UHGV virus genome: UHGV-0294963
Length of the DNA: 64,000 nucleotides
Strand: one strand, 5' to 3'
DNA from: a virus
Shown here piece after piece: positions 3,071-63,560 of this stretch. Both the position numbers and the translations under genes were made by a program. The notes beneath the pieces were generated by a model. The model searched no databases, was not told where the DNA came from, and was given only the letters and a program-made list of their open reading frames with translations. Numbering within the stretch: position 1 is the first letter of the stretch; each line of letters opens with the position of its first letter.

Positions 3071-3102
3071 GTTCGTTATAAACTCATGTGGTGTTATATA
3101 AT
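3069..3102 (+). promoter_or_regulatory. promoter AAgTTCGT-N16-TGTTATATAAT
   Basis: recurrent motif family; precedes GT-like gene at 3142. Confidence 0.55.
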
Positions 3103-3141
3103 ATAATAGTAAATAAAACACCGTTATCAAGGAGGATTGTT

Positions 3142-4047
3142 ATGGGAAAAATTATGTACGGTACCATTTCATATATACCGCCAGATGCAACTCGAAAGTC
3201 GATGCGTATTGCAAATCACAGAAAGCAGCTAGACTGGCTGTCAACATTTCTTACATCTGATGATTTGTACCTCCGCGTCGAGAGTGCTTGGGGCGACGAT
3301 TCTGAGTATGATAAGCTGCATGACGTTCCTTTCGAGATTACCAGTATTCAAGTACCAGCAGCGTACCCAGGAGCAAATCGCAATTATCTTCTGAAAAAAC
3401 TCTATGCTTCAGATTATGATTGGCTTGTAATCATGGACGATGACCGCGCTTTGTACCCATATTTTAACGGTGAGGCATTCTTCACTAAAGAGCTCAAGGG
3501 ACCTGATGGAGATAGACTTGCCAGAGAAGGAACCCTCATTAAAGGTTTACACCCAATGGTAGAGCCGTTCAAGCGTCAGTGCATTGAGTTTCCTAAGAAA
3601 AAGGAAGCTTGGTTTATGACCAAGAGCTCACCACTCGGTTTTCTTCAGATTGCTTGCATTCCTAATCTGGTAAAATATGGCTATGAACCGATTTATATGA
3701 ACGGCGAAACCAGTTGTATGGAAGGAACAGCACCTGAGGATTTACAGTTCGAGCTCGATTGGGTTCTTGCAAAACACGGGATGGCTTGTAATAAAAACCT
3801 AATTATTAAAGAATTTGGTGGAGAGAACCAGAGCTCGTTATACCAGAATAAGGAGCATCGCCGTAGAGTCGAGGCATATCACAGACAGTGGGTATCTGAG
3901 TACCTCAAGCAGAAAAATCCTAGAAACAAAGCACTCTGGGAAAAGAAAACTTTGAATGCTCGTCGTAATACGTTTGACCCTACTCATCTGTTCTTAAGGC
4001 GTGAAGTTGCTTGGGACGACGCTTGGGATTCTATAATCGAGAAGTGA
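3142..4047 (+). CDS. putative GT-A-fold (GT2-like) glycosyltransferase, DxD motif
   Basis: YASDYDWLVIMDDDRALY resembles the GT2 x-G-x-Y-I-x-F-L-D-x-D-D block; N-terminal ISYIPPD beta-strand; start reset to ATG 3142 (aggagga RBS) because the promoter lies inside the longest ORF. Confidence 0.4.
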   Translation: MGKIMYGTISYIPPDATRKSMRIANHRKQLDWLSTFLTSDDLYLRVESAWGDDSEYDKLHDVPFEITSIQVPAAYPGANRNYLLKKLYASDYDWLVIMDDDRALYPYFNGEAFFTKELKGPDGDRLAREGTLIKGLHPMVEPFKRQCIEFPKKKEAWFMTKSSPLGFLQIACIPNLVKYGYEPIYMNGETSCMEGTAPEDLQFELDWVLAKHGMACNKNLIIKEFGGENQSSLYQNKEHRRRVEAYHRQWVSEYLKQKNPRNKALWEKKTLNARRNTFDPTHLFLRREVAWDDAWDSIIEK

Positions 4048-4056
4048 GGTGAGTCT

Positions 4057-4995
4057 ATGAAACCCGAAGGTAATTTTATGGTTGGTATTATATCATATAT
4101 GCCAGAAACAGATGCAGGTAAGCAGCGTATTCCACTACACAAGGAACAGTTACGCTGGCTAGAGTGGCTTGCAGAAAAAGTACAGCATTCCTTCCCGATT
4201 TACCGAGTTGAGAGTGCGTGGGGACCTACAGCAAAAGCAGAGCTCACGTCTACTATGCCCATTATACCTATCGAGGTAGAAAAGCATACCTGCGCTGTAA
4301 ATAGAAACTTTCTCCTTGAAAAGTTCTATGCTTCAGATTATGACTGGTTGTTCCTTCTTGATGATGACCGAGTATTCTACGACCATTATAGATATTGGGA
4401 GTGGTTTGATGACCTTGCCACTCCGAGGGTGCTTTGTATGTGTCAAGAAGGCTACATCGTGTCTTGCATACTTCCTATGTACGAGCCGTTCAAGAAAGTC
4501 AATTATGAATGGCCTAATCATGAAACACACTGGTACTTTAGCAAAGACCCCATCAAAGGCAGTCTGCAGTCGTGTTTTATCCCGAACATTAAGAAATATA
4601 AGAACACAGAAGTTTACTTCGACAAACATACGGCTGCTCAGCTTGGTGAGCCTCCTGAGGATACGATGTTTCAGTTGGATTGGATTAAGGCAGGAGGTAG
4701 GTGCGTTCGCAATCGTTATCTCATAGCCAAGGAAGTAGGTCAGTCAGCGGGTGAAAAGAGTTTAATCTACGCTTCCCTAGAAGACCGACGCAAGGTTGAG
4801 GAAGGACATAATCTTTGGTTCACTCAATACCTCAAGCAGCTCTTTCCTAGAAATCCTAGATGTTGGGAGCGTCGTGGCTTTAACGCCAGATTTAATCCTG
4901 AATTCAAAGAGTTAATTCCCAGAACAAATTCTTATGTATTTGAATTGCCTGATTTGCCGCGTAATATCGTGAAAGAGATGAAGCAGAATGAATGA
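4057..4995 (+). CDS. putative GT-A-fold glycosyltransferase, tandem paralog of 3142..4047
   Basis: Shares ISYMPE, SAWG, YASDYDWLFLLDDDRVFY, QLDW and FPRNPR blocks with the upstream gene. Confidence 0.4.
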   Translation: MKPEGNFMVGIISYMPETDAGKQRIPLHKEQLRWLEWLAEKVQHSFPIYRVESAWGPTAKAELTSTMPIIPIEVEKHTCAVNRNFLLEKFYASDYDWLFLLDDDRVFYDHYRYWEWFDDLATPRVLCMCQEGYIVSCILPMYEPFKKVNYEWPNHETHWYFSKDPIKGSLQSCFIPNIKKYKNTEVYFDKHTAAQLGEPPEDTMFQLDWIKAGGRCVRNRYLIAKEVGQSAGEKSLIYASLEDRRKVEEGHNLWFTQYLKQLFPRNPRCWERRGFNARFNPEFKELIPRTNSYVFELPDLPRNIVKEMKQNE

Positions 4996-5374: not shown

Positions 5375-6037
5375 ATGGAAATTCCGAGCTTTTTCTATAT
5401 GCAAGATATCATTGAACGACGTAATCGACTTTTCGAAGTAGGAAATAAAATTCCTGAATATCGCGAGCTAAAGGAGATGGGCTGTAAGTTCTATGATGGA
5501 TTTCTGCTTCGGGACGACGAATCAGGTACCCAGTTAGAGCTTAACCATCTCTTTCTTCCTGACGATGTAGAAGACTGGGATAGAGGAACTAGAATACTGA
5601 ACAGGTATATCAAGGTTATTGAATCCTTGTATCTGCTTGAGAACACAGAGCATTGTATCGAGTCCGCTCGCCTTCTTACAATAGAGCGTGAGGAATTATA
5701 TAAGCAGATAATCCGTGAGCGGGTCTTTAGTGGTTTGAGGTTATACTATCACAATCAGGACGGTGATTGGGGTATCTACTTTATCGACGTAGAGGGTGCT
5801 CAGGTGAATCGTGCTATCCTCACCAAAACCACCGACAAGAACGTCCGTAAGAGAAATTGGAAAGGCAATCTGAACAGAATGCAGCTTTTTCTGCTTCGTG
5901 ATGATGTAGAAAATAGAACTCGTAGCATTATGCGAGTTGAAGAGATATTTGACCGCCATCGTGAGGAGATGATTATGGGTGGTGTCGCTGGTTATCATAC
6001 TGTAGATAAGGGGTGGTATAATGGCGAACTGGGATAG
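5375..6037 (+). CDS. hypothetical protein
   Basis: ORF with gagagtga RBS. Confidence 0.45.
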   Translation: MEIPSFFYMQDIIERRNRLFEVGNKIPEYRELKEMGCKFYDGFLLRDDESGTQLELNHLFLPDDVEDWDRGTRILNRYIKVIESLYLLENTEHCIESARLLTIEREELYKQIIRERVFSGLRLYYHNQDGDWGIYFIDVEGAQVNRAILTKTTDKNVRKRNWKGNLNRMQLFLLRDDVENRTRSIMRVEEIFDRHREEMIMGGVAGYHTVDKGWYNGELG

Positions 6038-7316
6038 TGCTCAGACAGCATTTCTAACAGCAGCCGCTAAGGTGTATGCAGCTTTGAAGATAGCTTATCC
6101 ATCAGGTATATATAGTTCAACAACTTCACCTACAATCAATGTCGACGGAGTTGAATATCAATGTAGATGTGACAGTACTGGAGTAATCCAGTGCATAATT
6201 CGTGTGATGGGTTATGACCCGAACTGGGGTGTATCTTCTGTATCCGGTCATACTGGTGACGGTTGGTATCTAACCGATGCTTCTGGTCCATTCATTAAAG
6301 ATAAGATTGGTAATGTATCATCAGACTGGGAAGTGCTTGATTTTAATGCTTCAGATGTAAAACCAGGTGATATCAGAGCTGCAAGTAATCATAGTCATTG
6401 TGACATATTTGTTGATTATCAGAATGGTAATGCGTACGGTCTTAATGCTGGTTCTACAGAAGCGATACAGAATTCGTGCAATGCTGGAACTCAATACTTA
6501 AATGACGGTAATCCCGATGACCTCGCTGTTACCCGGACAATTCAAGATAATGAGACAGCTAAGGTACTTCGCTATGTCAAGGGAGCAAATCAGACTCCCT
6601 CACAGATAGGTACGACAGATGTAAGTACAGGCGGACAATCGCTCGAATCACTCGATATCTATCTGAAGTTCATTCAAAGAATTGAATTTTATTATCAGAT
6701 ATTAGATAGCGCGGGAGATTATACGAAATACAGACCAGGATATATACCGAAAAATGCTAGAATGGTCAGAGTTACCCCTGACCGTGGTTCACCAGTATCT
6801 GACAGCTATGGAGATTCTTGGCTGGATTTTGTTGCTGGGTACACAAGACGCTGGATAGCAGGTGCAACCGAGGGTATAGATGCTGAACTTGAAGAAGGCT
6901 TGGTTATGATGTACACTCTTGATGATTCTGACCCACTGTTATTTGGAAAGACTGTAGTTAGAAACGAAGACGGTACTAATGATTATGAAGGCTCTAAAGG
7001 TTTAGTGCCGATTATTCACACGCAATGGCCTGTGCATTTTCGCTCGGTCCTCACTGATGTAGCCACGCATACAAAAGAATATGGTAGGTCATCTGCTTAT
7101 TTTACGAATGACACGTCGAATCCTCAGGGAGGTTCTGGTGAGACATCCCTTACAGACTTAATAAAAGCAGCTCGGAATTGTCAGTTTGTAACTGATGCTT
7201 CTGGTAATATTCCTGAGTGTGCAGATGCTCATGGATACCTATTCTTACATGATGAAGATGAGGCATATCAGAAGGATAACTATGAGCCTTGGGTACAGGG
7301 TATAAAGGAGGAATAA
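6021..7316 (+). CDS. hypothetical protein, possible NlpC/P60-like or CHAP-like cysteine peptidase N-terminal domain (tail-associated?)
   Basis: YQCRCDSTGVIQCII and KPGDIRAASNHSHCDIFVD loosely resemble the Cys/His motifs of NlpC/P60; weak. Confidence 0.3.
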   Translation: MANWDSAQTAFLTAAAKVYAALKIAYPSGIYSSTTSPTINVDGVEYQCRCDSTGVIQCIIRVMGYDPNWGVSSVSGHTGDGWYLTDASGPFIKDKIGNVSSDWEVLDFNASDVKPGDIRAASNHSHCDIFVDYQNGNAYGLNAGSTEAIQNSCNAGTQYLNDGNPDDLAVTRTIQDNETAKVLRYVKGANQTPSQIGTTDVSTGGQSLESLDIYLKFIQRIEFYYQILDSAGDYTKYRPGYIPKNARMVRVTPDRGSPVSDSYGDSWLDFVAGYTRRWIAGATEGIDAELEEGLVMMYTLDDSDPLLFGKTVVRNEDGTNDYEGSKGLVPIIHTQWPVHFRSVLTDVATHTKEYGRSSAYFTNDTSNPQGGSGETSLTDLIKAARNCQFVTDASGNIPECADAHGYLFLHDEDEAYQKDNYEPWVQGIKEE

Positions 7317-7319
7317 GAT

Positions 7320-9257
7320 ATGCCGAATGAATATAGTGCTGACGGTAAGATTATATTAAGAAGTACTAACGGTAATCAGATGAGTTTACCTAGATTTTTT
7401 CAGTTAGCCCTAGATGACGGTAATGGACATACTGCACATCCTATGAATGCACGGTCTGGGCACTACGCTTGGGATATGGGTACTAATAATTCTCTAACTG
7501 TACCGGTACGTACACCGTCATTTGGTACGGTAACTTCAGCCGGTGATGGTTGGAATGGCGGTATGGGTACTCATGTTATAGTTACAGATGATTCTGGTAA
7601 TGAACATAGATTTATGCACATGGTTGAAAATTCAGTGACAGTTTCAGTCGGTGATTCAGTTTCACAAGGTGATACCTTAGGATTAATCGGTAGCACGGGT
7701 GATTCTACTACTCCCCATCTGCATTATGATGTAATGAAGGATGGTTCTTTGTATACAGACCCGATAGAAGCGTATGATTGCTCGACCTTACCTTCAGGTT
7801 GGAACTTTGCAGACGCAGTTGCTGATAATCAGAATTGGGATTATATCAGATTAGACCAAGGTGCTTCAGATTACGGGCCTCCTGGCGGCTCGTCACCGAG
7901 TGAACCATATCTTCCAGACACACCTTGTTATGATATTTCCTGGGCTCAGTCTACAAGCGGTACCTTAAATGAATGTCTAGATGCAATAGCTGCCAGTAGC
8001 AGTGGTGGTGTAATTATCCAGGTAGGTGCTTTCAGAAATACTGGATTTGTACCGGAAGATAGATTTGACCCTGCACAGGCTTTAGCATATGCAATCAGTA
8101 AAAACCTAGCAGTTGGTGTGTATTTCTATAATTATGCTGATTATACTGAAAACCTAACTACAGCATTTCAAGCTGCGTTGGCTTATCTAGGTACTATCGG
8201 TGCTACCAAAGATAAATTAAAGCTAGGAGTCTGGATTGATACCGAATATAATTCTCAATTAGACTATGACCCAGTTCCTTCTTCGGACAAAGATGTCAAT
8301 TATGCGTATGTAGAGCGTTTCATGGATGTATTCGATGCAGCAGAATACCCCGTAGCGGGTGTATACAGCTCGGCTGCTTTCTTTGAGGACCATTACGGTA
8401 GTAGTCTAATTGGTAATAAACCGATATGGGCTGCTTACTGGGTTGATTCTTTCAGTGACGCTGATAGAAGTAGCTTAGATGCATATCTACCAGAAGCTGA
8501 TTACACAAAAGTCTACATAATGCAATATACAAGCAGTGCTACTGTATCAGGATGGTCAGGTAGACTTGATGGTAATAAAGTTCTAACAGCTTTACCTACT
8601 TCTGGTAGTGGTGGAGGTGGTGGCGGTGGTGAATATACAGAAGTCATCAACGTCACTGTTGATGTATCTCCTCCAAAGCGAATTTATTTTAATCCTACTC
8701 CGGGATTACTCGATGCAGCCACTGATTTGCTGAGCGACCGAAAAGCTACCATTACAGTTACTACGGATGCTGACAACGCAGACCTATACTATACCGTTGA
8801 TGGCTCTTCACCGTATCAATATACTTATGTGAACGGTAACCTCGCTTATACCGTAGCAAGCAACGCACAGCTGTATAGTTCAAGTATCACTATATATAAA
8901 GATTCACATATTCGTGTCGTAGCTGTCCCTTCTGGTACAGGTAGTTCCGGTTCATTCACAGAACCATTGGCAAAGGGCTCCGCTACATATTTGTTCAAGT
9001 ATCATAGTCTTGAACAGTCTTGGAAAGATGAGCAGAAATCTTATGCTACGTCTGACGGAGACATCTCCTTCTTTGAAGAAAACAAGCAAGCCTTTCTGCG
9101 ACTTCATGCAGAGCAGACTGAGGAGGAGATTTTATATGCAGCTGTTTATAAGCATGATACTCAGGTTGTCGAGGAAGACGCAGAAGATAGTGCAAGTGGT
9201 TCTGCTGGTACTATACCAGAAGATGAACGTGAGAACACAAGTTCGGTGGGTGATTGA
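7320..9257 (+). CDS. multidomain cell-wall hydrolase: M23 (LytM-type) metallopeptidase + GH25-like muramidase-like domain + Gly linker + C-terminal domain
   Basis: HYAWD (HxxxD) and HLH (HxH) with the Gly-rich M23 core about nt 7460-7730; DISWAQS...VIIQVGA...YFYNYAD...GVWIDTEYN resembles GH25 strands about nt 7920-8520; GSGGGGGGG linker at 8590-8630. Confidence 0.65.
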   Translation: MPNEYSADGKIILRSTNGNQMSLPRFFQLALDDGNGHTAHPMNARSGHYAWDMGTNNSLTVPVRTPSFGTVTSAGDGWNGGMGTHVIVTDDSGNEHRFMHMVENSVTVSVGDSVSQGDTLGLIGSTGDSTTPHLHYDVMKDGSLYTDPIEAYDCSTLPSGWNFADAVADNQNWDYIRLDQGASDYGPPGGSSPSEPYLPDTPCYDISWAQSTSGTLNECLDAIAASSSGGVIIQVGAFRNTGFVPEDRFDPAQALAYAISKNLAVGVYFYNYADYTENLTTAFQAALAYLGTIGATKDKLKLGVWIDTEYNSQLDYDPVPSSDKDVNYAYVERFMDVFDAAEYPVAGVYSSAAFFEDHYGSSLIGNKPIWAAYWVDSFSDADRSSLDAYLPEADYTKVYIMQYTSSATVSGWSGRLDGNKVLTALPTSGSGGGGGGGEYTEVINVTVDVSPPKRIYFNPTPGLLDAATDLLSDRKATITVTTDADNADLYYTVDGSSPYQYTYVNGNLAYTVASNAQLYSSSITIYKDSHIRVVAVPSGTGSSGSFTEPLAKGSATYLFKYHSLEQSWKDEQKSYATSDGDISFFEENKQAFLRLHAEQTEEEILYAAVYKHDTQVVEEDAEDSASGSAGTIPEDERENTSSVGD

Positions 9258-10483
9258 TTATGTATCTGGTTAATGAAATTAGTAATCGTGATTTGTCCTT
9301 GCTGCATTGTTATCGCATATTACGCAAGCCTTCTGAATTTCTTTCTGCTGTATATGACCAGGTTGAGCCGGTAGTCACAGAAATTCTGGAAGGAACGATT
9401 ACTGAGTTGCAGAGCGAAGATGGTTCACCACTGTACGCTTTCGACTTGGGCATCGAATCCATCGAAGGTTACATACCTTATCTAGAATTCGATGCGAATA
9501 ACGATGCAGATAGAAAACACCTAGAAACCCTTATTTATCTAGATAATCTAACGTTATACGGTAAATCTGCCGAGTTTCAAGAAGTGGTTCAGATAAAGGT
9601 GTACTGGGTAAACTCATTAGAGTCTATCAAGAAAGCAATTGAGCTGTATCTGAAAGCCATCGAGGAGTTAGACCCCGGTGAACTACGAAACAAGCTCAAT
9701 GATAAGAAAAACCAACCCAAAGGTATTCGTGCGATTACAGGTCGTGATGAGAATTTAGTTGAGTTTATGAATGGTGATGAAAGTCTAACTCTGCGAGATT
9801 CTGACTATATGATTACTTCAGCACTTGACGCTCAGATGTTAGTAAACCCCAGCCAAGAATTGCTTATGTCGTTACCAAGAAAACTAAAGCATAATATTAA
9901 CATAACTATAACAGACGGTGGTACTCGATATCTTTCTTCATTTTCTGGTTACACAATCAATATCAAAGGCAATGGTAATTGGGTTATTCGCGATGCACAA
10001 TGCGGTATAGATTTCGTATCAGGTAAAGGTAAGATTTATCTATGGAACTGTAAGCTGGTTCACTTCAGGCATACAATTTTAGAGAGTCATTCAGCTATGG
10101 GATATGACTGTGAATACTTATATGCACATAGGAGTCTGATAATCCTCAACCAAGGCGTTATCAGGGATGTGCATTTGGTAGGCGGTAGCACTATGGTTGA
10201 GGTTCCGACCTCGATGACCGGGGTGCAGTCTAGTTCTGATTTGCGGAATGTATCCTTAATTGGTCATGGCTGTTCCTTATATAGCTGGGTTAAACCAATT
10301 CCCGTAAAAGCGAAGAACATTCTGGGATTAGGTTGGTGGAGTACTTTTCTGGGTAGTGGTGATGCACTATATATAGGAGGACGTAGAATAGATGAGGTTA
10401 GCGGCGAGCACGATGAGGAGATGAAACCTAGTAGCATTCTTGGAATGACTATCGATAATATTCATATTCACCAGGAGGAGTGA
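9254..10483 (+). CDS. putative receptor-binding / tail-spike protein, paralog 1 of 3 (shared N-terminal ~250 aa)
   Basis: N-terminal SNRDLSLLHCYRILRKPSEFLSAVY and IPYLEF blocks shared with 10490 and 11761 genes; divergent C-terminus. Confidence 0.35.
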   Translation: MIMYLVNEISNRDLSLLHCYRILRKPSEFLSAVYDQVEPVVTEILEGTITELQSEDGSPLYAFDLGIESIEGYIPYLEFDANNDADRKHLETLIYLDNLTLYGKSAEFQEVVQIKVYWVNSLESIKKAIELYLKAIEELDPGELRNKLNDKKNQPKGIRAITGRDENLVEFMNGDESLTLRDSDYMITSALDAQMLVNPSQELLMSLPRKLKHNINITITDGGTRYLSSFSGYTINIKGNGNWVIRDAQCGIDFVSGKGKIYLWNCKLVHFRHTILESHSAMGYDCEYLYAHRSLIILNQGVIRDVHLVGGSTMVEVPTSMTGVQSSSDLRNVSLIGHGCSLYSWVKPIPVKAKNILGLGWWSTFLGSGDALYIGGRRIDEVSGEHDEEMKPSSILGMTIDNIHIHQEE

Positions 10484-16000: not shown

Positions 16001-16037
16001 AAACCGTAGCGTACCGTGTGTATGCTACGGTTTTGCT
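16001..16037 (+). terminator. rho-independent terminator
   Basis: aaccgtagc-gtaccgtgtgtat-gctacggtt followed by tttt, 20 nt after the stop of 15084..15980. Confidence 0.6.
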
Positions 16038-16064
16038 GTATATCTCCTATGTAGTTATAAAGTT

Positions 16065-16107
16065 ATATAAGATTTACTACCGTGTGATATGCGTTAGCGT
16101 GCTACAT
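16065..16107 (+). promoter_or_regulatory. conserved 40-nt block gatttactaccgtgtgRtatgcKttagcgtgctacRtg, unknown role
   Basis: near-identical copy at 24848-24893; the TAGCGTGCTA core also appears at 37655 and 63505. Confidence 0.4.
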
Positions 16108-16124
16108 GGTTTATAACTTCGTGT

Positions 16125-16147
16125 GCGTGAACGAAATATGTTATAAT
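16125..16147 (+). promoter_or_regulatory. promoter AACTTCGT-N16-TGTTATAAT
   Basis: exact motif upstream of 16222 gene. Confidence 0.6.
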
Positions 16148-20738: not shown

Positions 20739-20807
20739 GATACTGCTTAAATGCACGGGACTGCTTGTAAAGTTATACACGCAACTTCGTAGCATTTAAG
20801 CAGTATC
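20739..20807. repeat. IR-bracketed intergenic cassette copy B (16-bp arms gatactgcttaaatgc / gcatttaagcagtatc)
   Basis: perfect arms 20739-20754 and 20792-20807; core cttgtaaagttatacacgc. Confidence 0.7.
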
Positions 20808-24714: not shown

Positions 24715-24728
24715 GCCACCAGAGAGAA

Positions 24729-24766
24729 ACACGGTAGTGTCGTTGTCGACACTACCGTGTTTTTAT
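24729..24766. terminator. bidirectional rho-independent terminator at the convergence point
   Basis: 14-bp stem acacggtagtgtcg / cgacactaccgtgt, followed by ttttatttg (+ strand) and preceded by aaa/tct (- strand). Confidence 0.65.
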
Positions 24767-24847
24767 TTGTAGTTATATGATACATAAATCACGTTGCTAC
24801 ACAACGCACGCTAATGATTTGCGTGTGGTTCACACGAATCACATAAA

Positions 24848-24893
24848 CTTATACATGATTTACTACCGTGTGGTATGCTTTAGCGTGCTACGT
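24848..24893 (+). promoter_or_regulatory. second copy of the conserved 40-nt block (gatttactaccgtgtggtatgctttagcgtgctacgtg)
   Basis: near-identical to 16065-16107; abuts the stop of the - strand gene 24897..27104. Confidence 0.4.
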
Positions 24894-24896
24894 GAT

Positions 24897-27104
24897 TTAA
24901 TTGAGCACTAAGAAGTGACCTGCACTGTTCTCAGCTTTGAATGCCTGAATATCAGCTACAGGCTTCCAGTCGATGAACGTACCGTCGTTTGCTAGAAGCA
25001 TTTGCATTAGAGTTTCCTTAGCGATGTCTTCAGAGTCTCCAGGAACGACAATCCCGTCAAAATTGTCTTCTGGGAGCATACACTCAGCGACAAAACCAGG
25101 GCCTTGTGCTTGAGTGTCTCTTAGGTCTTCATAACCGAGTCCATATGCAGCGAAGTCACCTTCCTCAAAAACTCGATTTGTGCCTGTATCTGCAGCTGCA
25201 GGTTCACCGACTATACCTACGCCGCCGAGTGCATTGCTGTTAAAGCTGAGTGATGAGTTAAGACCAGCAGCATCTTCTGATTTCTTCATATGTTCCTGTC
25301 TTTTCTTAAATGCTGCTTTGAGCTTGTCTAGAGCAGATGCTCCTTTGTTTGCGTCACAGCTGGTATCTGAATTAGCATGCTTAGATGCGTCTAGATTGTC
25401 TTCGTCACCGTGAAGCATATCGTAAGAAGCCGCTGCCTGCTTGATATAGTTGACAGCATCGCTGCCCTTCATTCTCTTATCCAAGCTGCCTGATTCGGTA
25501 CGGATAATGCTGTAATCCTTGAATAAGGTTACATAGACAGTTGCGTTTGCCAAGTCACCTGAGGCAATCATTTCATTATCATTGTATCCCGCAGGTGCTA
25601 CGAAAGCACCGATATCGCCGACTTTGACTTCAACGCTGGTAGTATCAGGATTCTTCTCAATTGCACGAGTAAGAGCAGCTTGGAGCGACTCGTCGGTGAG
25701 CTCATCGGTAAGCACTTCTGTAGTGTTTTCGTCAAGTGAGGCATCAAGGTCCTCCCAGTTGACATCTTTGTACTTTCTTGCGATGTACTTCTGGATGTCA
25801 GGTTTAACCTTCATCGCTTCTTTTCTTCCGATGTACTTATTGAGAAGCAGCCAGGTTACGATAGACGCATCCAGCTTATATGCTTCTTGAGGAGTGATGA
25901 GCTTCTGCTCGACCATAGGCTGAAGAAGTTTCGCATTTTTTCTGTAAGCATCGATAGGCTTAATTGTTCCTGCCTTGACGCCTTCCAGAATTGCGGCAGG
26001 GTCATCAGGAATATTCTCTGCAACGGAGTACAATCCTTTCTTAATTAGCTTATCCTTTAGTGCTGGGTCAACCTTAACAGCATAGTCAGGTGAAATATAA
26101 CCCTGTTGTACCAGCCAAAGAATCCTATCAGGAGCTCTACGTGCAACGATTTCTGGTGCAATCAAGCCCTTGGTGACAAGGTCTTTAGCAAGTGTCGGCT
26201 TAGCTTTGAGAACCTTTTCTGCATCGACATAACCCTTCGTGACCAAACGCATAACACCAGGTGTGCTCATACGGTCGAGGTCAGACTTTTTAAGTTCTGC
26301 GATGCCGTCTGCGAGGAAGTACTCATAGCAGCGAGCTGGAGGATTCTGCAGCATACTATCGACCATATCAGACAAAAGACCTGCAAGCCAGTAAGCTGTA
26401 TGCTGGTCTCTCTTGTTCGCATTGTCACCGTTTGCTGTATATCCATACATACCCTGCTCAACATCGATGAATCTTCCCGACCTATGGTAGATTAGATGAG
26501 CCTCAGAGTTAGGATTGTAGTTAGGTTCGAATGACCAATCATCTACACCGCTCTCATCAGTCTCAGCACCCACCTCAACCGTGAGTGAAGACTTGGCTAC
26601 CCACTGGGTAGTGCCGAGTTTTTGAGAAGTGTACATCAAGGTTGACAGAATTAGGTCATCACCTTTGTTCTCACGGAAGGCGGTATAACGGAATCCGGGA
26701 GGAAGGTCAACAGCTTCTTGTGCAGCTCTGAATACGTTCTTGACACGCACTGCTACACCAGGGTCAAGTGCAGAATTAAGCCCAGTGCTCTGACCTTTGA
26801 GTGAATTATAGAAAGCATCGATGCGTCTGCAGCACTCAAGATTGGTATCAAGCCAATCACCGAGGTCTTCTGCACACATATCAGGGCTTTCGATGTCATA
26901 CTGCGGAACATATGCAAATCCTTCTTCGGTAGCTTCACTATTCTCTGTCGGAGTATAAATCTCGACAGCAGTACCGTCAGGAAGATTGATTGTAAAGCCT
27001 ACCTTTGAGTCATCAATGATAGTACCTTCTGTTCTGCAGCAGTTGAGTGTTCGGGCATTTGCAATGCCCATCGTTTTGCACATTTCTGAAATAAATACGT
27101 TCAT
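24897..27104 (-). CDS. structural(?) protein with 7 tandem ~21-22-aa repeats (LVxKGxIxPxxAxKxxP)
   Basis: repeats VTKGYVDAEKVLKAKPT / LVTKGLIAPEIVARRAPDR / LVQQGYISPDYAVKVDPA / LIKKGLYSVAENIPDDPAA / VKAGTIKPIDAYRKNAKL / VEQKLITPQEAYKLDAS / LLNKYIGRKEAMKVKPD; aaggagg RBS. Confidence 0.5.
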   Translation of the reverse strand: MNVFISEMCKTMGIANARTLNCCRTEGTIIDDSKVGFTINLPDGTAVEIYTPTENSEATEEGFAYVPQYDIESPDMCAEDLGDWLDTNLECCRRIDAFYNSLKGQSTGLNSALDPGVAVRVKNVFRAAQEAVDLPPGFRYTAFRENKGDDLILSTLMYTSQKLGTTQWVAKSSLTVEVGAETDESGVDDWSFEPNYNPNSEAHLIYHRSGRFIDVEQGMYGYTANGDNANKRDQHTAYWLAGLLSDMVDSMLQNPPARCYEYFLADGIAELKKSDLDRMSTPGVMRLVTKGYVDAEKVLKAKPTLAKDLVTKGLIAPEIVARRAPDRILWLVQQGYISPDYAVKVDPALKDKLIKKGLYSVAENIPDDPAAILEGVKAGTIKPIDAYRKNAKLLQPMVEQKLITPQEAYKLDASIVTWLLLNKYIGRKEAMKVKPDIQKYIARKYKDVNWEDLDASLDENTTEVLTDELTDESLQAALTRAIEKNPDTTSVEVKVGDIGAFVAPAGYNDNEMIASGDLANATVYVTLFKDYSIIRTESGSLDKRMKGSDAVNYIKQAAASYDMLHGDEDNLDASKHANSDTSCDANKGASALDKLKAAFKKRQEHMKKSEDAAGLNSSLSFNSNALGGVGIVGEPAAADTGTNRVFEEGDFAAYGLGYEDLRDTQAQGPGFVAECMLPEDNFDGIVVPGDSEDIAKETLMQMLLANDGTFIDWKPVADIQAFKAENSAGHFLVLN

Positions 27105-27703: not shown

Positions 27704-27766
27704 CTGCTTAAATGCACGAAGGTACAGTGTATAAATTTACAGCCTAACCGACGCAGCATTTAAGCA
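27704..27766. repeat. IR-bracketed intergenic cassette copy C (arms tgcttaaatgc / gcatttaagca; core acagtgtataaatttacag)
   Basis: arms 27705-27715 and 27756-27766; right flank gcatttaagcaaaaccg identical to cassette F. Confidence 0.7.
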
Positions 27767-37529: not shown

Positions 37530-37697
37530 TGTCGTTTACCCCCTTACTGTAATAATGTAATACAACACCACATATCTGCTGTAGCTTGCTTATGTTTTGC
37601 GTGGTTTTGTTAACCATGTAATACAGTTATACACATTTACAGTCACACACGCATGCTGTAGCGTGCTATGTAGTTCGTATATCATATAATACACCGG

Positions 37698-37746
37698 TAA
37701 ATCAAGATAAAGAAGCACGTCGCAGCGAAATACTGTGACGTGCTTC
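37698..37746 (-). terminator. rho-independent terminator after the terminase gene
   Basis: stem gaagcacgtc / gacgtgcttc with a T-rich tail on the - strand (ttctttatcttgattt). Confidence 0.5.
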
Positions 37747-37753
37747 TGATTTT

Positions 37754-37796: not shown

Positions 37797-39749
37797 TCAG
37801 TGCATTTGTGTTAATCGGTCGAAAAATGACCAATCGTCTGGATTTCTTTCGAACGCAGTTCTGTCGTAGGCTTGCAGCCCACCGAATAGGCCGTTCTTGA
37901 ACGACGAAGGCATTTTATCTTCTTTTTCGTGTGAATACATCGTAAAATCATGTAAAACCGGAGTATAAGGTAACAGACTCAAATCCCATACAGCGCCTGC
38001 CAAGCTATCCGAAATATCTTTTGAACCATTAGCAGGATGGTCTAGCTTACCTGTATGGGTATCGTATTGAAGATAAATCAATTCATTTTCTAATCTAGCG
38101 TAATGAATTAGACTAATTCTACGCTCCATCATCGATTCACGCAGAGTCTTATAACCTTCTGGTGTACGGTCGAGTGAGCGTATAGCCGTGGTGAATCCTT
38201 TATCTCGCAATATCTGATGAGACTCAGCTGTCTGGTAGGTATCGGTACTGATTATAGCAATATTAAATCCCACACTTCGTAGCCAGTACAGGAACCTTCG
38301 GTTCTTTGCCATGCTAATTTCGGTACCAGGTGGAGCCTTGATACCGACAGAGAATACCTGAGCATAAACTCGTTTTTCTATTGTTCCATCATCGGTATCT
38401 GCCAGAACATTATCTACATAGCAAGCACCCGATATACCAGTAATATCATTCTTCAATGACGTATCAAGATGTATAGCCATCGGTCTTGATTTATATTCCT
38501 TAGGTACCTTTTCTAGGTCGAAAAATTCTTGATACTCCATATGGTCGTTGCATCCTATCTCAAGTACCTCCGCTGAGAACGGATTTGGTCTATCTGTGTA
38601 GCACGAGCTGATAATCTTATAACTGAAGTAGCTGGTTGTACCCGGTAGTGCTTTACCAGCAAGGTCCTGTAATGCAGTTATGATGTTGAACCGAAAATCT
38701 GACTCTAGTTCAACCGGGACATCCAGTATCTCATATCCAAGCTGTCGTATGGCATCAAGGTCTTCTCCTTCTTCAATCACTCTAGGAGTTAGCTGTTTCG
38801 CACCGTAAGCAACCTTAAACATTTTACCAGAATATGTATCAGAGGGTTTTACAACCCACAGCGGCTCGTCGACAATGAACAGTTTATCAGCGTCGTTCTC
38901 TTTTCGGCGTTTATCTAGATACACCTCTAAGAAGTCGTCTTCTGCTTTCTTAGAAGAAACCAGGAACATCTTACCCAAGAGTTTTCCGTTCCTGATGAAA
39001 CGTGATTTAATTCTGGCTTTAACCGAAGAGTAAGTCTGCATAATCTTAGACTTCTCCATGGTTGTATTCGAACCCGGTGCGAAGTTAACCTCATCAAGGA
39101 AACCACAGAATATTTGCTGACCTAAACCGTGACTTGCTTTAGAACCAGCTTTAATAGCAATATGTTTTCCTGGTACATAATAAGGGTTAGATGCGGAACC
39201 TGCAACGGTACCATGAGACAGAAACCAAGGAGATTCCATAAGACACGCATGAAGTCGTCCGTAACCAACGCTTTGTGCCAGTGCAACCGTAGCGTTGAAG
39301 AAGAATATAGCAATTTCGTCGGTATCTGCGAATCCGAAATATCTTTGAGGGAATTTCAGACATAATAGTCGATATGTTAGGTAAGCAATGGCATAGACTG
39401 CAATCGCGGTCTTACCAATACCGATAGCCCCTGTAAACGCAATTTCTTCGTATTCGGTATCTCCACCGGCAAATATCTTGCGTAGTTGTTCTCTCCAGAA
39501 AGGGTATATCTGATTACCTAGATTAGTGGCTTTACCTAGATATTCAGGGTCTTCTAGAAACGTGTCTATATCTACCGGAATCTCTTCATAGTCTTCTAGC
39601 CAGACTTTTTCATAGGTTTCACTCTCACCTGTTTCACTGAGCTCTCTGAGTATCTGCTGCATAGTCTCTTGCTCAGAAGGAGACAATGAATTATAGATAC
39701 TTTGAAATCGTTCAGGAGCTAGCATAGTGAGATTTAGCGTACTACTCAT
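37797..39749 (-). CDS. terL: terminase large subunit
   Basis: Walker A FTGAIGIGKTAIAVYAIAY near the N-terminus; 650 aa; C-terminal nuclease-like Asp-rich region. Confidence 0.75.
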   Translation of the reverse strand: MSSTLNLTMLAPERFQSIYNSLSPSEQETMQQILRELSETGESETYEKVWLEDYEEIPVDIDTFLEDPEYLGKATNLGNQIYPFWREQLRKIFAGGDTEYEEIAFTGAIGIGKTAIAVYAIAYLTYRLLCLKFPQRYFGFADTDEIAIFFFNATVALAQSVGYGRLHACLMESPWFLSHGTVAGSASNPYYVPGKHIAIKAGSKASHGLGQQIFCGFLDEVNFAPGSNTTMEKSKIMQTYSSVKARIKSRFIRNGKLLGKMFLVSSKKAEDDFLEVYLDKRRKENDADKLFIVDEPLWVVKPSDTYSGKMFKVAYGAKQLTPRVIEEGEDLDAIRQLGYEILDVPVELESDFRFNIITALQDLAGKALPGTTSYFSYKIISSCYTDRPNPFSAEVLEIGCNDHMEYQEFFDLEKVPKEYKSRPMAIHLDTSLKNDITGISGACYVDNVLADTDDGTIEKRVYAQVFSVGIKAPPGTEISMAKNRRFLYWLRSVGFNIAIISTDTYQTAESHQILRDKGFTTAIRSLDRTPEGYKTLRESMMERRISLIHYARLENELIYLQYDTHTGKLDHPANGSKDISDSLAGAVWDLSLLPYTPVLHDFTMYSHEKEDKMPSSFKNGLFGGLQAYDRTAFERNPDDWSFFDRLTQMH

Positions 39750-43956: not shown

Positions 43957-45156
43957 TCAATTATAGGTAATGCCGGTTAAGTTCGGGTACTTCGCGTGAA
44001 CCGCTTCATACTGAGCTTGACCACCTACCCAGATGGTGCAAGCGTTCGGCACACCTGTAAATATATCAGGTTGGTCGATTATCGGTGTGTCATTAACCAC
44101 CTTGGTGAAGTCGATTGATGATACATCGATGTAGTTAAGACTGGTGCAATTCTTGAATAAACCTTCCGCGGTATCTATCTTATCTAGACAGCAAGAGCCT
44201 AAATCAATTCGCTCTAGGACTGAATCATCTGCGAACATATAGCTGATATCAGTTGCGCTATGCGTATCAAGTAACGGTAGTCCTGTAATATCTTGTAGCA
44301 AGCTGTTAGCAGCTAACGCATAACTAAAGGTTGTCACGTTACCCGTATAAACGTGTTCAAGATTTAACCTCGTAGCACGCTGTTGATAAAACAGGTGTGA
44401 CGCGGTGGTAAAATCAGTAGCATCAGTTACCGTCCAAATCTCACAATCTTTATACCAGGTATCAGCAGGAACTGCTCGAACTGAACCGATATCTGCATAG
44501 TAGGTTGTCTGTGGGGTAACAGCACTGGCTGAGGAATATCCTGCAATACGATATGGTTGAGGAAAATCAGAGTTATAAGCTGACTCTAATTTCTTCAACC
44601 TAGCCAGTACACCACCAGGTACTACCCCTGCTTGGTATTCTTGTGCTATCGGAATTAAGCCCGTCATAGTTATCCTAGCATTGGTAACCGGATTAACAGC
44701 AGTCATCTGTGTGACTACCTCGTCGTAATTAGCTTGATATCCGATACCTATGCCATAATACCGATTAAGTGGAATAGCTAAATCTATCTTATTTAGAATT
44801 CTGTAACGAATTCTAAAGGTAGACGAAGGTCGAGTAGCAGTATACAGATATAACTTCCCGTTTACCGTTTCGACAGCGGTGATACTCTCGAATGCTTGAT
44901 ATTGAGCTTGACGCTCAGCTTGTGTAGCATTATATGAGTAAATCAGTTGAATTACTGGAACTGTATCTTCCTTGATATTATAGTAGGGCGTTTCCCATCT
45001 ATATTGCGTACCATAGATATACCAATCTGAATTTACGACATTGGCATATATAGGGTCTCCTGTCTGATGATATGAAGGGTAAACGTTGATAAAATCATCT
45101 ACATCAGTGAATACCAACTCTACTGTAGGTGATACCTGACTAACCTTAAATAGCAT
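43957..45156 (-). CDS. BspA-like leucine-rich-repeat / DUF285-like repeat protein
   Basis: C-terminal repeats LDTHSATDISYMFADDSVLERIDLGS / FKNCTSLNYIDVSSIDFTKV resemble DUF285 WDvSnVTdMSYMF and BspA LRR units (Firmicutes/Mollicutes-typical). Confidence 0.35.
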   Translation of the reverse strand: MLFKVSQVSPTVELVFTDVDDFINVYPSYHQTGDPIYANVVNSDWYIYGTQYRWETPYYNIKEDTVPVIQLIYSYNATQAERQAQYQAFESITAVETVNGKLYLYTATRPSSTFRIRYRILNKIDLAIPLNRYYGIGIGYQANYDEVVTQMTAVNPVTNARITMTGLIPIAQEYQAGVVPGGVLARLKKLESAYNSDFPQPYRIAGYSSASAVTPQTTYYADIGSVRAVPADTWYKDCEIWTVTDATDFTTASHLFYQQRATRLNLEHVYTGNVTTFSYALAANSLLQDITGLPLLDTHSATDISYMFADDSVLERIDLGSCCLDKIDTAEGLFKNCTSLNYIDVSSIDFTKVVNDTPIIDQPDIFTGVPNACTIWVGGQAQYEAVHAKYPNLTGITYN

Positions 45157-50107: not shown

Positions 50108-50179
50108 ACGGTTTTGCTTAAATGCTGTGACACTGCGTTATACTTTACACATACGCATATCGTGCATTTAAGCAAAACC
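50108..50179. repeat. IR-bracketed intergenic cassette copy F (17-bp perfect arms cggttttgcttaaatgc / gcatttaagcaaaaccg)
   Basis: arms 50108-50124 and 50163-50179; core tgtgacactgcgttatactttacacatacgcatatcgt. Confidence 0.75.
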
Positions 50180-53435: not shown

Positions 53436-54197
53436 TTACAGAAATTGCTTATAGATAGGGTCTAAGCTATTATTGATAAAATCGCATTGATGGCACTTAA
53501 AGTCGATAATTTTTCGAATTATTTCTACTTCAGAATCATAGATAGATGCTACTTTAGGACAGTGGTCAGACTCACCTAAGCTGATACCGCCATCAATTCG
53601 GATAGCAGGTGTGCAATAGAAGTGAGACACAAAAAGATGTTCAACAATCAAACCAATTGACGGGTTCTTCAACTGCTTGGTAACCGCTCGCACATTAAGA
53701 CACTTAGACGCTTTCGCTTTCCATGGTAGCTTATTAGCGAGAGCTCTGCCTTGTGGGTATATCTGAGTAACACATCGGTCGCATAGAATAAATCCTGACT
53801 CACGCCAAAGTCTCTTGTGTAAGGGTAAGGCTTTCGGGTAGTATCTAGAGTCTGTAGATACCTGCCAAAATACTTTCGTGCACGGTGTTCCCGCTGCAAT
53901 TCTTTTAGCAGCATCGGGATGTTCTAGGCACCAGAATCCGTTCGTCGTAATCGTAATCACAGATTGGTGTCTCTCTTCAGAAAACCTGGTTAGTATTCTG
54001 TTCATAATCAATTCAAAATCAGGGTGTTCGGTAGGCTCACCACCTGACACGACGACATGCTCATAAGCTTCGTTTCTGATTAGAAACTCTAGAACATCGT
54101 TGAGCGTGTCTAAAGTCATATGTTCTCCTTCAGGTGTTGCACTGTTCATACAATGAGTACAACCCATCGAACATTTTTCAGTCAATTTCAGCAGCAT
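53436..54197 (-). CDS. radical SAM protein, glycyl-radical-enzyme activase-like (NrdG/PflA family)
   Basis: CSMGCTHCMN (CxxxCxxCxN), SGGEP and TNGF blocks as in PflA/NrdG. Confidence 0.5.
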   Translation of the reverse strand: MLLKLTEKCSMGCTHCMNSATPEGEHMTLDTLNDVLEFLIRNEAYEHVVVSGGEPTEHPDFELIMNRILTRFSEERHQSVITITTNGFWCLEHPDAAKRIAAGTPCTKVFWQVSTDSRYYPKALPLHKRLWRESGFILCDRCVTQIYPQGRALANKLPWKAKASKCLNVRAVTKQLKNPSIGLIVEHLFVSHFYCTPAIRIDGGISLGESDHCPKVASIYDSEVEIIRKIIDFKCHQCDFINNSLDPIYKQFL

Positions 54198-55910: not shown

Positions 55911-56111
55911 TTATCCTAATAAGTCCCAGAACTCTTTAGAAGTAATCTGGTATATCTTAGTCGAGTCATAGGCATCGGTGATGACTACCTCTCCATTCTG
56001 CTCATACATGGAAATGAGCAATCCAGTACTGTCTTTCGGGTTACCACCGACTTTGCTGTCCTGGATGCGGTTTTCTTCTTTTAGCTCACGTCGTATAGGT
56101 AAATCCTTCAT
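55911..56111 (-). CDS. hypothetical protein
   Basis: aaggaggggg RBS. Confidence 0.4.
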   Translation of the reverse strand: MKDLPIRRELKEENRIQDSKVGGNPKDSTGLLISMYEQNGEVVITDAYDSTKIYQITSKEFWDLLG

Positions 56112-56973
56112 GATAAACCCCCTCCTTGATGGGCAAGACTACAATGTCGTGATTGCAAGCAGAAGCATGGTTGTTCGCCATATCAATAAATACAGATATT
56201 TCGCTAAATTCAACCGAACTGTTACTTATCAGCTTTAAGCCTACAGTATCTCCCCAAACGAACAAAGTACCCGCCGGTAAAGTCGAAAAGGTCTGCTTGG
56301 TACGTTCTTTGTCAGAAATAACCTTAACCTTGATATTAGAAGAAACCGTTCTGAGCTTATAGTAATCCATATCTACAATATTAGATTCATACGCTGCAGG
56401 GTGCTTTACCCAATCACCGTCTACCCGGTTGTCTTTTATCTTAATGCCTATCAGATTATACCAGCGGAATACAGCACCTACCGGTAATTCTGAGAACGAA
56501 ATATCACCCTCCCAGTCTTCCTTCAGCTTCTCGATTTCAGATTGACTCAACGGCTTCACCCACAAGTCGGTTCGAGAGGTAATTCGATGTCCGTTGTCTA
56601 AACGAATAATATTTCCTTGATGCTTGGGCGACTTATCAGTGATAATCTCATTCGTGAGTTTTCTGAACAGCTTACCACCGAAGTTAAAGATAGTGCCTAC
56701 AGGGACTTTCTCGAGAGGAAGCATACCACGCATCGCCTGATATCTCTTCTTATCGATTTTGCAGCCAGGGTATGCTTTTTCGATAGCAGCTACAATTTCG
56801 GTATTTATCTGTTCGGTGTTGGTGCAACCAGAAGCAGAATACCAGTCGTCGCCTAGGAAGTAATGACATAGTTCATCAAGAGCAACCTGAGCTTTCATTG
56901 GTGGTGCAAATATACCATAATCACCAGGTTCGCATAAACTCAAAATACGGTCTCTGTCAAATTTCTTGTGCAT
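56086..56973 (-). CDS. hypothetical protein
   Basis: aaggagg RBS. Confidence 0.45.
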   Translation of the reverse strand: MHKKFDRDRILSLCEPGDYGIFAPPMKAQVALDELCHYFLGDDWYSASGCTNTEQINTEIVAAIEKAYPGCKIDKKRYQAMRGMLPLEKVPVGTIFNFGGKLFRKLTNEIITDKSPKHQGNIIRLDNGHRITSRTDLWVKPLSQSEIEKLKEDWEGDISFSELPVGAVFRWYNLIGIKIKDNRVDGDWVKHPAAYESNIVDMDYYKLRTVSSNIKVKVISDKERTKQTFSTLPAGTLFVWGDTVGLKLISNSSVEFSEISVFIDMANNHASACNHDIVVLPIKEGVYHEGFTYTT

Positions 56974-62160: not shown

Positions 62161-62601
62161 CTATACCTCATCATAGAAATCATCGTGATAGACAGAGTCG
62201 TCGAAATAATCACGAGCTTCGCTACAGGTGTACCAGCAGTATTCGACAAGCCTCAGTTCGTCTGGTTTAATTTCTCTGCCGCTAAGAAGCTTGCTGAACT
62301 TATTGCTGTACTTCGCATACTCTGCAAAGCTTAACCGTCTCGCTCTACCCCAGTCACCCTCAACATCGTCCTTAGAAGACAGAACATAATCAAGGAAGAA
62401 ATTGGTAGTAGGTGCAATTTCAAAATTTGTACCTGCAAGACAACTTTCTATATCCCAGTCTCCTTCAGCATTGAATATTCTACAGGCTTCCTCAACAGAT
62501 ATCTGCATTCTTATAACTTTTCTGTGACAATAATCACTCATTTTCATTCTCCTTTCTGAACAATGGAACCATGTCGTCACCACTCTAGTGACAGTATGCA
62601 A
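62161..62601 (-). CDS. hypothetical protein
   Basis: ORF. Confidence 0.4.
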   Translation of the reverse strand: MHTVTRVVTTWFHCSERRMKMSDYCHRKVIRMQISVEEACRIFNAEGDWDIESCLAGTNFEIAPTTNFFLDYVLSSKDDVEGDWGRARRLSFAEYAKYSNKFSKLLSGREIKPDELRLVEYCWYTCSEARDYFDDSVYHDDFYDEV

Positions 62602-62972: not shown

Positions 62973-62999
62973 GCGAAGCACCGCATAAGCACTCTAAAA

Positions 63000-63560
63000 T
63001 TCCAGAATTGTCAACCGCAAGCTAGGAGTCGGGACTTCTGATATAGAAACTTTTTGCGAGAAATCGTGCTAGCAGAAAACGGTATCTAGGATTCTGGGGG
63101 TGTGGATTACCTGACACGAGAAGCTGGGCTTTCGAAATCAAGGGAGTCAAGAACCAGGGCTGGGAGACCGAGGAGTAGGGTTCGTAACCGGGAGCTGGGA
63201 GGTAGGGGTAGGGGGTAAAGGGTAGGGGATAGGGGGTTTGGATATGGAGACTTTTTGCGAAATCAGTGTCGGAGAAAAAACGTAAAAAGCGGGTCCGTAG
63301 TATCGGAATACCGTTGAAAGGTATTTCAGGACCGGTATTTTCGGGCGATTATTTTAAGGTATCTACAGCAGAACTTCGGTATTTTCCTGGTTTTGTGTTA
63401 TATAACACATCTAGCAGAACGACTCGAAGCTCCTTGCTACCAGCCTGAACCTAGCACGCTAACGCACGCTAAGGGCTTGCTGCTAGACATATGTTATACA
63501 TCGTAGCTATGTTACCCTTAGCGTGCGTTGTGCTGCTATGTGCTGCTTTAGCGCTCACGA
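63000..63560. repeat. 560-bp non-coding region: GCTGGG iterons, (TAGGGG)n G-tract array, ~40-bp direct repeats, long imperfect palindrome
   Basis: no ORF of 60 aa or more on the - strand; G-runs at 63190-63240 in an otherwise AT-rich genome; direct repeats gaaactttttgcgagaaatc (63043) and gagactttttgcgaaatc (63247). Confidence 0.6.
63373..63440. promoter_or_regulatory. divergent promoter pair sharing the palindromic -10 TGTTATATAACA (AACTTCGg on +, AgCTTCGa on -)
   Basis: both strands give 8-mer-N16/17-TGTTATATAA; the - transcript would cross the G-tract region, the + transcript the long palindrome. Confidence 0.4.

Follow-up and report, generated by a model that had tools for sequence, protein, structure and literature searches.

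The 64,000-nucleotide stretch of the virus genome UHGV-0294963 analysed here, referred to as the window, contains a short intergenic element with the core TTAGCGTGC, in its full form (Y)ATGCGTTAGCGTGCTAYRTG, that recurs at the borders of transcription units. We consider it a genuine, selectively maintained and clade-specific cis-element. In the reading we favour, with a probability of roughly 0.4, a clade-specific factor recognises the element as double-stranded DNA and acts at transcription-unit boundaries. The copies occur in both orientations and in varied structural settings, so that the duplex sequence is the sole feature common to all of them.

A repeat search of the window returned a direct repeat of 57 nt (16057-16113 and 24843-24899, 88% identical), both copies of which carry the block TATGCGTTAGCGTGCTA; the near-identical block that a preliminary description of this DNA had reported at two places is thereby borne out. 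The exact 9-mer TTAGCGTGC is present six times, at 16094(+), 24806(-), 24880(+), 63454(-), 63464(-) and 63518(+), as compared to a chance expectation of about 0.5 (128,000 positions / 4^9), and all six copies are intergenic, i.e. they fall within the approximately 8.4% of the window that is non-coding. Similarly, TTAGCGTGCTA has 7 matches at one mismatch or less (1.07 expected) and TAGCNNGCTA has 4 (0.91 expected), numbers that were reached in none of 100 shuffles. One-mismatch variants of the 9-mer within genes stay at the chance level (17 seen, 12 +/- 3.4 expected), so the frequent occurrence inside coding regions that had been named beforehand as an argument against the motif was not found. 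When a profile of the 28-nt block was scanned over the window, it returned four loci, with E values of 8e-8 (site A), 9e-8 (site B), 6e-6 (site D) and 0.008 (site C). The next matches, at 44308-44381 on the minus strand, are a coding coincidence in a 399-aa DUF285 repeat protein and not a site; the near-matches TATGCGTTAGCTGCTA and, in contig L004 (5347-5375), TATGCGTTAGCGTGCA encode ...FSYALA... in the DUF285 protein.

The element itself was delimited as 16090-16104 at site A, 24876-24890 at site B with the inverted partner B' at 24806-24814, 37654-37668 at site C and 63449-63541 at site D, where D1 and D2 are on the minus strand and D3 is on the plus strand. The sites and the signals next to them are the following.

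16003-16036, plus strand: intrinsic terminator 3' of the DUF932 gene, stem ACCGTAGC / GCTACGGT, then a T-run
16057-16113, plus strand: site A, repeat copy 1, with the block TATGCGTTAGCGTGCTA at 16088-16104 and the core TTAGCGTGC at 16094-16102
16115-16147, plus strand: early-type promoter, AACTTCGT-N16-TGTTATAAT, with its -10 hexamer at 16142-16147
24725-24764: bidirectional intrinsic terminator with an 18-bp stem, between the convergent replication (plus) and head-tail (minus) modules, conserved in the relatives
24785-24899: site B, an imperfect palindrome (about 115 nt) directly next to the stop codon (24897-24899) in the gene of a 735-aa protein
24806-24814 and 24880-24888: the site B copies, B' (GCACGCTAA) and B (TTAGCGTGC), the latter within repeat copy 2 (24843-24899)
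37654-37668, plus strand: site C, where the spacer of terminase and portal holds the diverged copy TGCTGTAGCGTGCTA, antisense to the two genes
37685-37747, plus strand: TATAAT and the invariant ACACCGGTAAATCAAGATAAAG, followed at 37711-37747 by a hairpin that has a T-run
63372-63431: two overlapping early-type promoters on opposite strands, with a shared palindromic -10 TGTGTTATATAACACA at 63394-63409, within which the minus-strand hexamer TATATA is at 63399-63404
63372-63378 (plus) and 63431-63425 (minus): the boxes of these two promoters, AACTTCG and AGCTTCG
63449-63541: site D, 93-nt palindrome with D1 at 63454-63462 (minus), D2 at 63464-63472 (minus) and D3 at 63518-63526 (plus)

The two terminators and the promoter at 16115-16147 are as the preliminary description had them, and its placement of the motif at module junctions holds as well: the distribution is non-random, intergenic only and follows the borders of transcription units. 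Some of its copies had to be corrected. The one given at 37655 is a real site but a diverged copy, reading GTAGCGTGCTA at 37658-37668; the one given at 24815 exists but is located at 24806-24814; and of four copies claimed for a palindrome at 63445-63550 three are exact, while the fourth is degenerate (TTAGCGCTC, near 63547).

IMG/VR contains about ten uncultivated relatives (contigs of 111-167 kb), whose proteins are 79-95% identical to those of the window (terminase 82-95%, homologue of the 735-aa protein 79-92%). At orthologous intergenic junctions in these relatives the core is unchanged and the flanks diverge. The relatives have a fifth locus, E, outside this window. Among 17 distinct copies drawn from A, B, D and this fifth locus, 14 contiguous bases, TGC(G)TTAGC(G)TGCT, are invariant, and at site A 11 distinct orthologous sequences agree in all 17 nt of TATGCGTTAGCGTGCTA. 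A genome has 4-5 such loci. Scans of IMG/VR with a 15-mer and of JGI metagenomes with a 21-mer led back to the same phage group, with a few unrelated chance matches besides; all 11 metagenome matches of the 21-mer are sites A, B or E of this group. A search of 185,579 bacterial and archaeal genomes gave no match to the 21-mer, and we have therefore rejected a host-derived repeat of the repetitive extragenic palindromic type, or a prophage origin.

One contig outside the clade deserves mention. L027 (IMGVR_UViG_3300025407_000252) is a viral contig of high GC content, unrelated to this group, in which a palindrome of 20 bp, TGCGTTAGC-nn-GCTAACGCA, occurs three times (6537-6556, 8306-8325 and 10331-10350), each time just upstream of a gene. 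Its half-site equals the invariant left part of the element. We did not retain this contig as a lead to the binding protein, as it has no protein homology with this clade and the resemblance may be a chance one.

The unit that all copies have in common is an asymmetric 9-mer. The preliminary description had taken an interrupted palindrome, TAGC-nn-GCTA, as the core, but this dyad is found in only 4 of the 7 window copies (A, B, C and D1), while B', D2 and D3 read TTAGCGTGCGTT; furthermore, site B of L011-L014 reads GCTG, which breaks it. Since the dyad is not kept in all copies and the invariant block TGCGTTAGCGTGCT is asymmetric, we reject the palindromic operator of a dimeric repressor. What survives of the earlier proposal of a dimeric protein site is its more general part, i.e. 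a sequence-specific DNA-binding protein is the best single explanation. Variation at the centre of the element falls on the N of TAGC-N-TGCT (G, A or T), which, judged from the sequence, is as expected if the centre of a protein site is weakly contacted.

The distance between the element and the nearest -10 hexamer is a second feature that would suit a protein site. Counted from the end of TAGCGTGCTA to the hexamer, it is 16 nt at site C (9 of 10 phages), 26 nt at site E (four sequence types), 37 nt at site A (all 11 orthologues) and 47 nt at D1. At A, C and E the spacer sequences differ and their lengths stay fixed. The four spacings differ by whole helical turns and are thus in one helical phase; the corresponding centres of TAGCGTGCTA would lie near -33.5 at C, -43.5 at E, -54.5 at A and -64.5 at D1. 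We take this pattern as no more than suggestive.

At site A the block TATGCGTTAGCGTGCTA is followed after 10 nt by the promoter box AACTTCG in 11 orthologues, and the element together with the box AACTTCGT.TGCG makes up a nearly unbroken conserved block of 40 nt. The spacers from terminator to element and from element to promoter both vary in the orthologues. The terminator has invariant stem arms and a variable loop in 11 orthologues, and its 5' arm includes the core-like GTAGCGTAC. The promoter drives the recombination/replication module (Mre11-like, Rad50-like, PolA) and is one of at least 10 of the early type AACTTCGT-N16-TGTTATAAT in the window; the family with the consensus AACTTCGT-N16-T(R)TGTTATAAT-RTRGRTACARTAA has at least 11 members (plus strand: 1557, 14985, 16115, 20783, 63372; minus strand: 50098, 53432, 55126, 57487, 59910, 62972, 63431). 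The extended -10 of these promoters resembles the host sigma-A type, and the upstream AACTTCG is unlike TTGACA; from their sequences, the boxes suggest a modified or phage-directed polymerase specificity.

A second family of intergenic inverted repeats, GCTTAAATGC followed after about 30-40 nt by GCATTTAAGC, often lies beside early-type promoters. Several of its loops contain a TATAAAT-like sequence, and the members lie between genes, at the following positions.

1118-1175, 20745-20801, 27706-27765 and 50116-50173: inverted repeats of the second family
37754 and 63568: single arms of this family

At site C a conserved TATAAT (37685-37690) begins 16 nt downstream of the element. In 9 of 10 related phages the arrangement is (T/G)TAGC(G/A/T)TGCT(A/G)-N16-TATAAT-ACACCG.TAAATCAAGATA, where the sequence of the N16 is variable and ACACCG.TAAATCAAGATA is invariant; one relative has TATAGT, and in one the spacer is 14 nt. 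The region 37685-37747 could possibly give a short antisense transcript opposite terminase and portal, to judge from its layout. In most relatives the T-run of the 37711-37747 hairpin is on the opposite strand, and for this reason the small-RNA reading of the region is weak. The TATAAT/ACACCG block is nearly invariant in ten phages (the window and L001-L009); directly behind it the sequence changes in L001, L006 and L007 to what is apparently an inserted gene.

Site E has a baseplate-like gene on one side and a Vut_1 (YhhQ-like) transporter gene on the other, and its parts follow in the order early-type promoter, 85-nt hairpin, element, conserved TGTATAAT, structured leader and transporter gene. 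The Vut_1 gene of the site E region (L022 8800-9996) is of the queuosine-precursor transporter family and its leader is without an Rfam match; a PreQ1 riboswitch was considered for this leader and dropped as it found no support in Rfam. A radical-SAM / Fer4_12 enzyme of the QueE type is encoded at 53436-54197 of the window, and the two genes together are a hint of a 7-deazaguanine pathway in this phage group.

Site D begins 28 nt past the stop of a minus-strand gene ending at 63570; D1 and D2 are in tandem, and D1 lies 20 nt upstream of the minus-strand AGCTTCG box. Its relatives were reached via the gene at the window end, as no orthologues of the open reading frame at 62161-62601 were found. 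The palindrome is kept in two of three relatives (L050 and L051) and is absent in L052, which nevertheless retains sites C and E. Both promoter boxes are kept in L050 and L052, while in L051 the plus-strand box is AATTCGG; in L051 one site D copy lies 10 nt from an AACTTCG box, as at site A. The two directions of the overlapping promoters (63372-63431) should compete for polymerase. Adjoining site D is a non-coding region of about 600 nt (62980-63440) that holds a 29-nt direct repeat (63031, 63232), multiple units of GAAAATACCGG and GGTAT, and G-rich tracts (GGGTAGGGGTAGGGGG...). L052 has a long tandem array of GTCAGCTGTCAGTT at the matching place (in L050-L052, downstream of position 5900). 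It may be an origin, a genome end or a control region of another kind.

All relatives keep the palindrome of site B, which has the bidirectional terminator on one side and the stop codon of the last head-tail gene on the other.

If the element is a duplex recognition site, its factor would be a sequence-specific protein encoded by the phage or by its host. At single sites it would sit on one face of the helix beside RNA polymerase and would modulate the adjacent promoter by activation or by timed repression. The inverted pairs, with 65 nt between the copies at B and 45 nt at D, would permit cooperative binding and might separate adjacent or convergent transcription units as boundaries or roadblocks.

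Several observations weigh against this interpretation. Firstly, the helical-phase pattern was noticed post hoc on four spacings, and the -10 hexamers at C and E are themselves inferred; the D1 spacing is not kept in L050 and L051. Secondly, the element is found upstream of only one of the nine fully aligned early-type promoters (16115), plus one of the overlapping pair at D. With so few occurrences it is not a general promoter component, and we reject the idea that it is a general UP element of the early promoters. Thirdly, no promoter was detected on either side of site B, so the role of this site is assumed by analogy. Fourthly, Pfam and PHROGs scans of about 70 window open reading frames revealed no helix-turn-helix or other DNA-binding domain from which a binding protein could be named. 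Finally, the arms of B and D have compensatory changes, together with G.U-type substitutions that favour the transcribed strand, and an RNA stem-loop accounts for these at least as well.

This last point leads to the possibility, which we regard as real but doubtful, that the element is an RNA-level signal at the 3' ends of transcription units, i.e. a stem-loop that is cleaved by an RNase III-like activity or shields the upstream mRNA from 3' exonucleases, and that keeps read-through RNA apart from the unit that follows. As plus-strand RNA, the block of this genome folds into a G.U-rich hairpin of 12-13 bp with energies of -15.6 and -13.4 kcal/mol (z = -3.6 and -3.1), and the fold is strand-specific (z = -0.4 for the opposite strand). 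The full motif lies in sense orientation just past a gene or terminator at A, B, D (D1, D2) and E. Moreover, B and D form long duplexes, B directly after a stop codon and D 28 nt after one, with z = -3.9 (plus strand) and -4.2 (minus strand) at B and -4.8 and -6.8 at D. The alignment of site B has 32 consensus pairs, three of them with compensatory changes, and the substitutions in L016 and L010 give G.U pairs solely on the mRNA strand; at site D, L050 and L051 have the compensatory change CGG/CCG to GGG/CCC.

The small hairpin itself is unevenly kept. Over 17 copies its energy ranges from -24 to -5 kcal/mol, and in two of them (L010 site A and L014 site B) z is above 0. Covariation over its 13 pairs is not significant (81.0% of cells paired, as compared to 79.6% in shuffles, 46 of 500 of which were as high). 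Its loop and 3' arm are invariant and its 5' arm is variable, which is the opposite of what a purely structural hairpin should show. The pairing partner of UUAGCGUGC differs between sites and is missing at C, so the copies have no RNA or single-stranded structure in common: A and E form local G.U hairpins, long inverted repeats are found at B and D, and C is without either. Site C is in addition antisense to both its neighbours. A and the plus-strand copy of B lie behind strong terminators, where read-through RNA alone would carry the element. Template switching can homogenise the arms of a palindrome without selection on RNA. With Rfam 15, neither the window nor any of three site E loci gave a match at the gathering threshold; the only matches were meaningless ones to microRNA models with E above 0.07, and no tRNA or tRNA remnant was found.

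More specific roles in transcription were also considered and set aside. The element is not an intrinsic terminator, since the U-tract is not kept: a terminator scan flags only the site B copy (tail ATTTAATTGA), orthologous elements end in GGTTTAYAAC, GATTAGTTAAG or GTAAAGGAG, and the genuine terminators are upstream of A and B. Nor is it a promoter itself, as no downstream -10 is conserved in common to A, B and E. The small-RNA 3' module put forward in the preliminary description did not stand up. For a small-RNA gene at A or B, two -10-like stretches came into question; the first (between terminator and element) lacks conservation, and the second (GTTATAYA; TGTATAAY on the other strand) lacks the critical final T. 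Thus no conserved promoter precedes the element, and the missing U-tract in most orthologues, the unevenly kept hairpin and the lack of significant covariation speak against such a module as well. Antitermination, its other suggestion, is contradicted by the arrangement of the sites, also in the form of a lambda-type nut site: at A and B the element comes after the terminator, site C is antisense to both flanking genes, and at A the element precedes the next promoter and is therefore absent from the transcripts of that promoter.

Sites B and D also invite the question of replication. The element might be a set of iteron-like origin-binding sites, with D and perhaps B as a second origin, or an ssoA-like strand-specific priming signal. 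Site D has at least three copies, tandem and inverted, with a period of about 10 bp, and adjoins the repeat-rich non-coding region; A and B flank the Mre11/Rad50/PolA module; the core includes TAGCGT, the CS-6 hexamer of ssoA (PMC4598088), partly in the loop of the hairpin, which is strand-specific. TAGCGT alone occurs 24 times in the window, though, and RS_B (TTATGCCGAGAAAATTT), the second signature of ssoA, is absent from it at up to 3 mismatches. Folded as single-stranded DNA, the hairpin is no better than shuffles (z = -1.2 and -0.9), and no similarity was detected among 72,556 plasmids (PLSDB) beyond chance matches of 20-40 nt at E = 5. On these three grounds, RS_B, plasmid similarity and single-stranded DNA fold, we reject membership in ssoA. 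No initiator gene was identified, and a site D that can be missing, as in L052, where C and E remain, fits poorly with an origin. We hold a replication role to be improbable.

The flanks of the element point to exchange between its copies. In the 14 nt 5' of the core, sites A and B of the window are 93% identical, whereas site A of the window and its closest orthologue, L010 site A, share 36%; in the same flank L011 site A is 100% identical to its site E copy (taken from L017). Since this likeness within a genome exceeds that between orthologues, we conclude that the copies exchange sequence, and this would also be the reason why the repeat is 57 nt long here, as compared to the 14-28 nt conserved across the clade. 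A duplex recognition site is compatible with this, as gene conversion between its copies would give similar flanks within one genome. One may also imagine that the element has no function of its own and is a recombination relic or exchange point, i.e. a homology patch like those of the PeSLs (early-promoter and stem-loop cassettes of T4-like phages) or the gene-converted remains of a small mobile palindromic element. Gene content does change beside sites C and D: extra genes follow C in L001, L006 and L007, and L050 and L052 have extra genes in the interval from the gene stop to D. The layout of site A, terminator, element and early promoter, is as in PeSLs (PMC2839356, PMC4122927). But a neutral sequence would not hold 14-17 invariant bases where intergenic flanks have fallen to 36-50% identity, the loci number only about 4-5 per genome, and no transposase, target-site duplication or host copies were found. 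We therefore consider a functionless relic very unlikely.

Returning to the duplex recognition site, a broader version of it can be drawn up, which at present is highly speculative and, in our opinion, a long shot. Protein-bound boundary elements might organise the temporal programme of the phage: one clade-specific factor at TTAGCGTGC would tune replication-module and early-region promoters, the copies in plus orientation (B, C and D3) would launch or gate antisense transcription, and the paired inverted copies would insulate convergent units. As part of the same conjecture, B, C and D3 would owe this role to their position just past the 3' ends of minus-strand genes, B and C facing the late head and tail genes.

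The genomic setting can be described briefly. The window comes from a large, uncultivated myovirus of about 150-165 kb, an assignment that follows from its tail tube, tail sheath, major head, portal and terminase genes. The plus-strand genes, up to 24714, include those of a flap endonuclease, the DUF932 protein, the Mre11-like and Rad50-like proteins and the family A DNA polymerase (PolA). On the minus strand, from 24897, follow the genes of the 735-aa protein and of the tail tube, tail sheath, major head, portal and terminase, as well as a long run of small early genes that holds a ligase, a dUTPase and the radical-SAM enzyme. For the large terminase (37797-39749, minus strand) the best match is in a Bacillus phage, identity to the terminases of Bacillus phages being no higher than 41%, and no DNA-level relative of the 64-kb window was found among 50,697 deposited phage genomes, cultured phages included. 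The group is known from metagenomes alone and most of its early genes are without recognisable function. Two further features may be recorded: a 295-aa protein (56086-56973, minus strand) has an N-terminal Tad8 domain, an inhibitor of type II Thoeris (E = 3e-12), and the genes at 3088-4047 and 4057-4995 (plus strand) are adjacent paralogues of about 315 aa each, with 72% identity over an 82-nt stretch.

As a phage regulatory DNA word the element is of a familiar kind; it is of moderate interest to specialists and changes no general picture. It has nevertheless some practical value, as it can be used as bait for the regulator, marks transcription-unit borders and draws attention to B and D as candidate control or origin regions. 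Should the relation of helical phase to the -10 elements hold, it would define an activator-dependent class of promoters in an uncultivated myovirus lineage; if B and D are RNA processing sites, they would show how this phage separates its early, replication and late transcripts.

It is instructive to compare the element with known systems. The ssoA single-strand origins of rolling-circle plasmids combine the CS-6 hexamer, located in a terminal loop, with RS_B about 65 nt away (PMC4598088, PMC5703833; the RS_B motif is from PMC4598088). The likeness lies in a TAGCGT at or near a hairpin loop, a strand-specific fold and a non-coding location: TAGCGT is present in every copy of the element; in the small hairpin it falls partly in the GTTA loop and partly in the 3' stem, and at B and D it is in the arms and not in the loop. 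The differences are the missing RS_B, the weak DNA fold and the carrier, a large lytic-type myovirus rather than a rolling-circle replicon.

PeSLs are intergenic cassettes at module borders that serve as recombination points (PMC2839356, PMC4122927). They resemble the present case in the layout of site A (of this site only) and in the homogenisation of copies within a genome; gene insertions were seen next to some of our sites. On the other hand, PeSLs are numerous and consist of the promoter and the terminator themselves, whereas the element is an extra 17-nt word between the two, at 4-5 loci, and also occurs without either partner. The second inverted-repeat family described above may be the stem-loop equivalent of PeSLs in this phage.

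The early mRNAs of phage T7 and of the Bacillus phage SP82 have intercistronic hairpins that are processed by RNase III. Recurrent, related intergenic stem-loops are common to these and to our sites, and the duplexes of 16-25 bp after stop codons at B and D may be of this type. According to the predicted folds, a duplex of about 20 bp or more, as in such processing hairpins, exists at B and D and not at A, C and E, and the orientation of the sites is not uniform. The antisense transcription of the broader proposal would be similar in manner to lambda OOP, but genome-wide.

A further parallel is that with phage activator sites, which lie at set positions upstream of promoters without a good -35, for example at about -43.5 for Mor and C of phage Mu, about -55 for P2 Ogr / P4 Delta and about -30 for the MotA box of T4; the sites of p4 of phi29 are another example. 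The element departs from these in that no factor gene was found for it and that it is an asymmetric word rather than a dyad; besides, the promoter at site A already looks complete, site B has none and two loci are long inverted repeats. At the same time it shares with activator sites a short conserved duplex word, present in few copies, intergenic and at a fixed distance from the -10 over a drifting spacer, and its inferred centres of -33.5, -43.5 and -54.5 match the classic positions of such sites.

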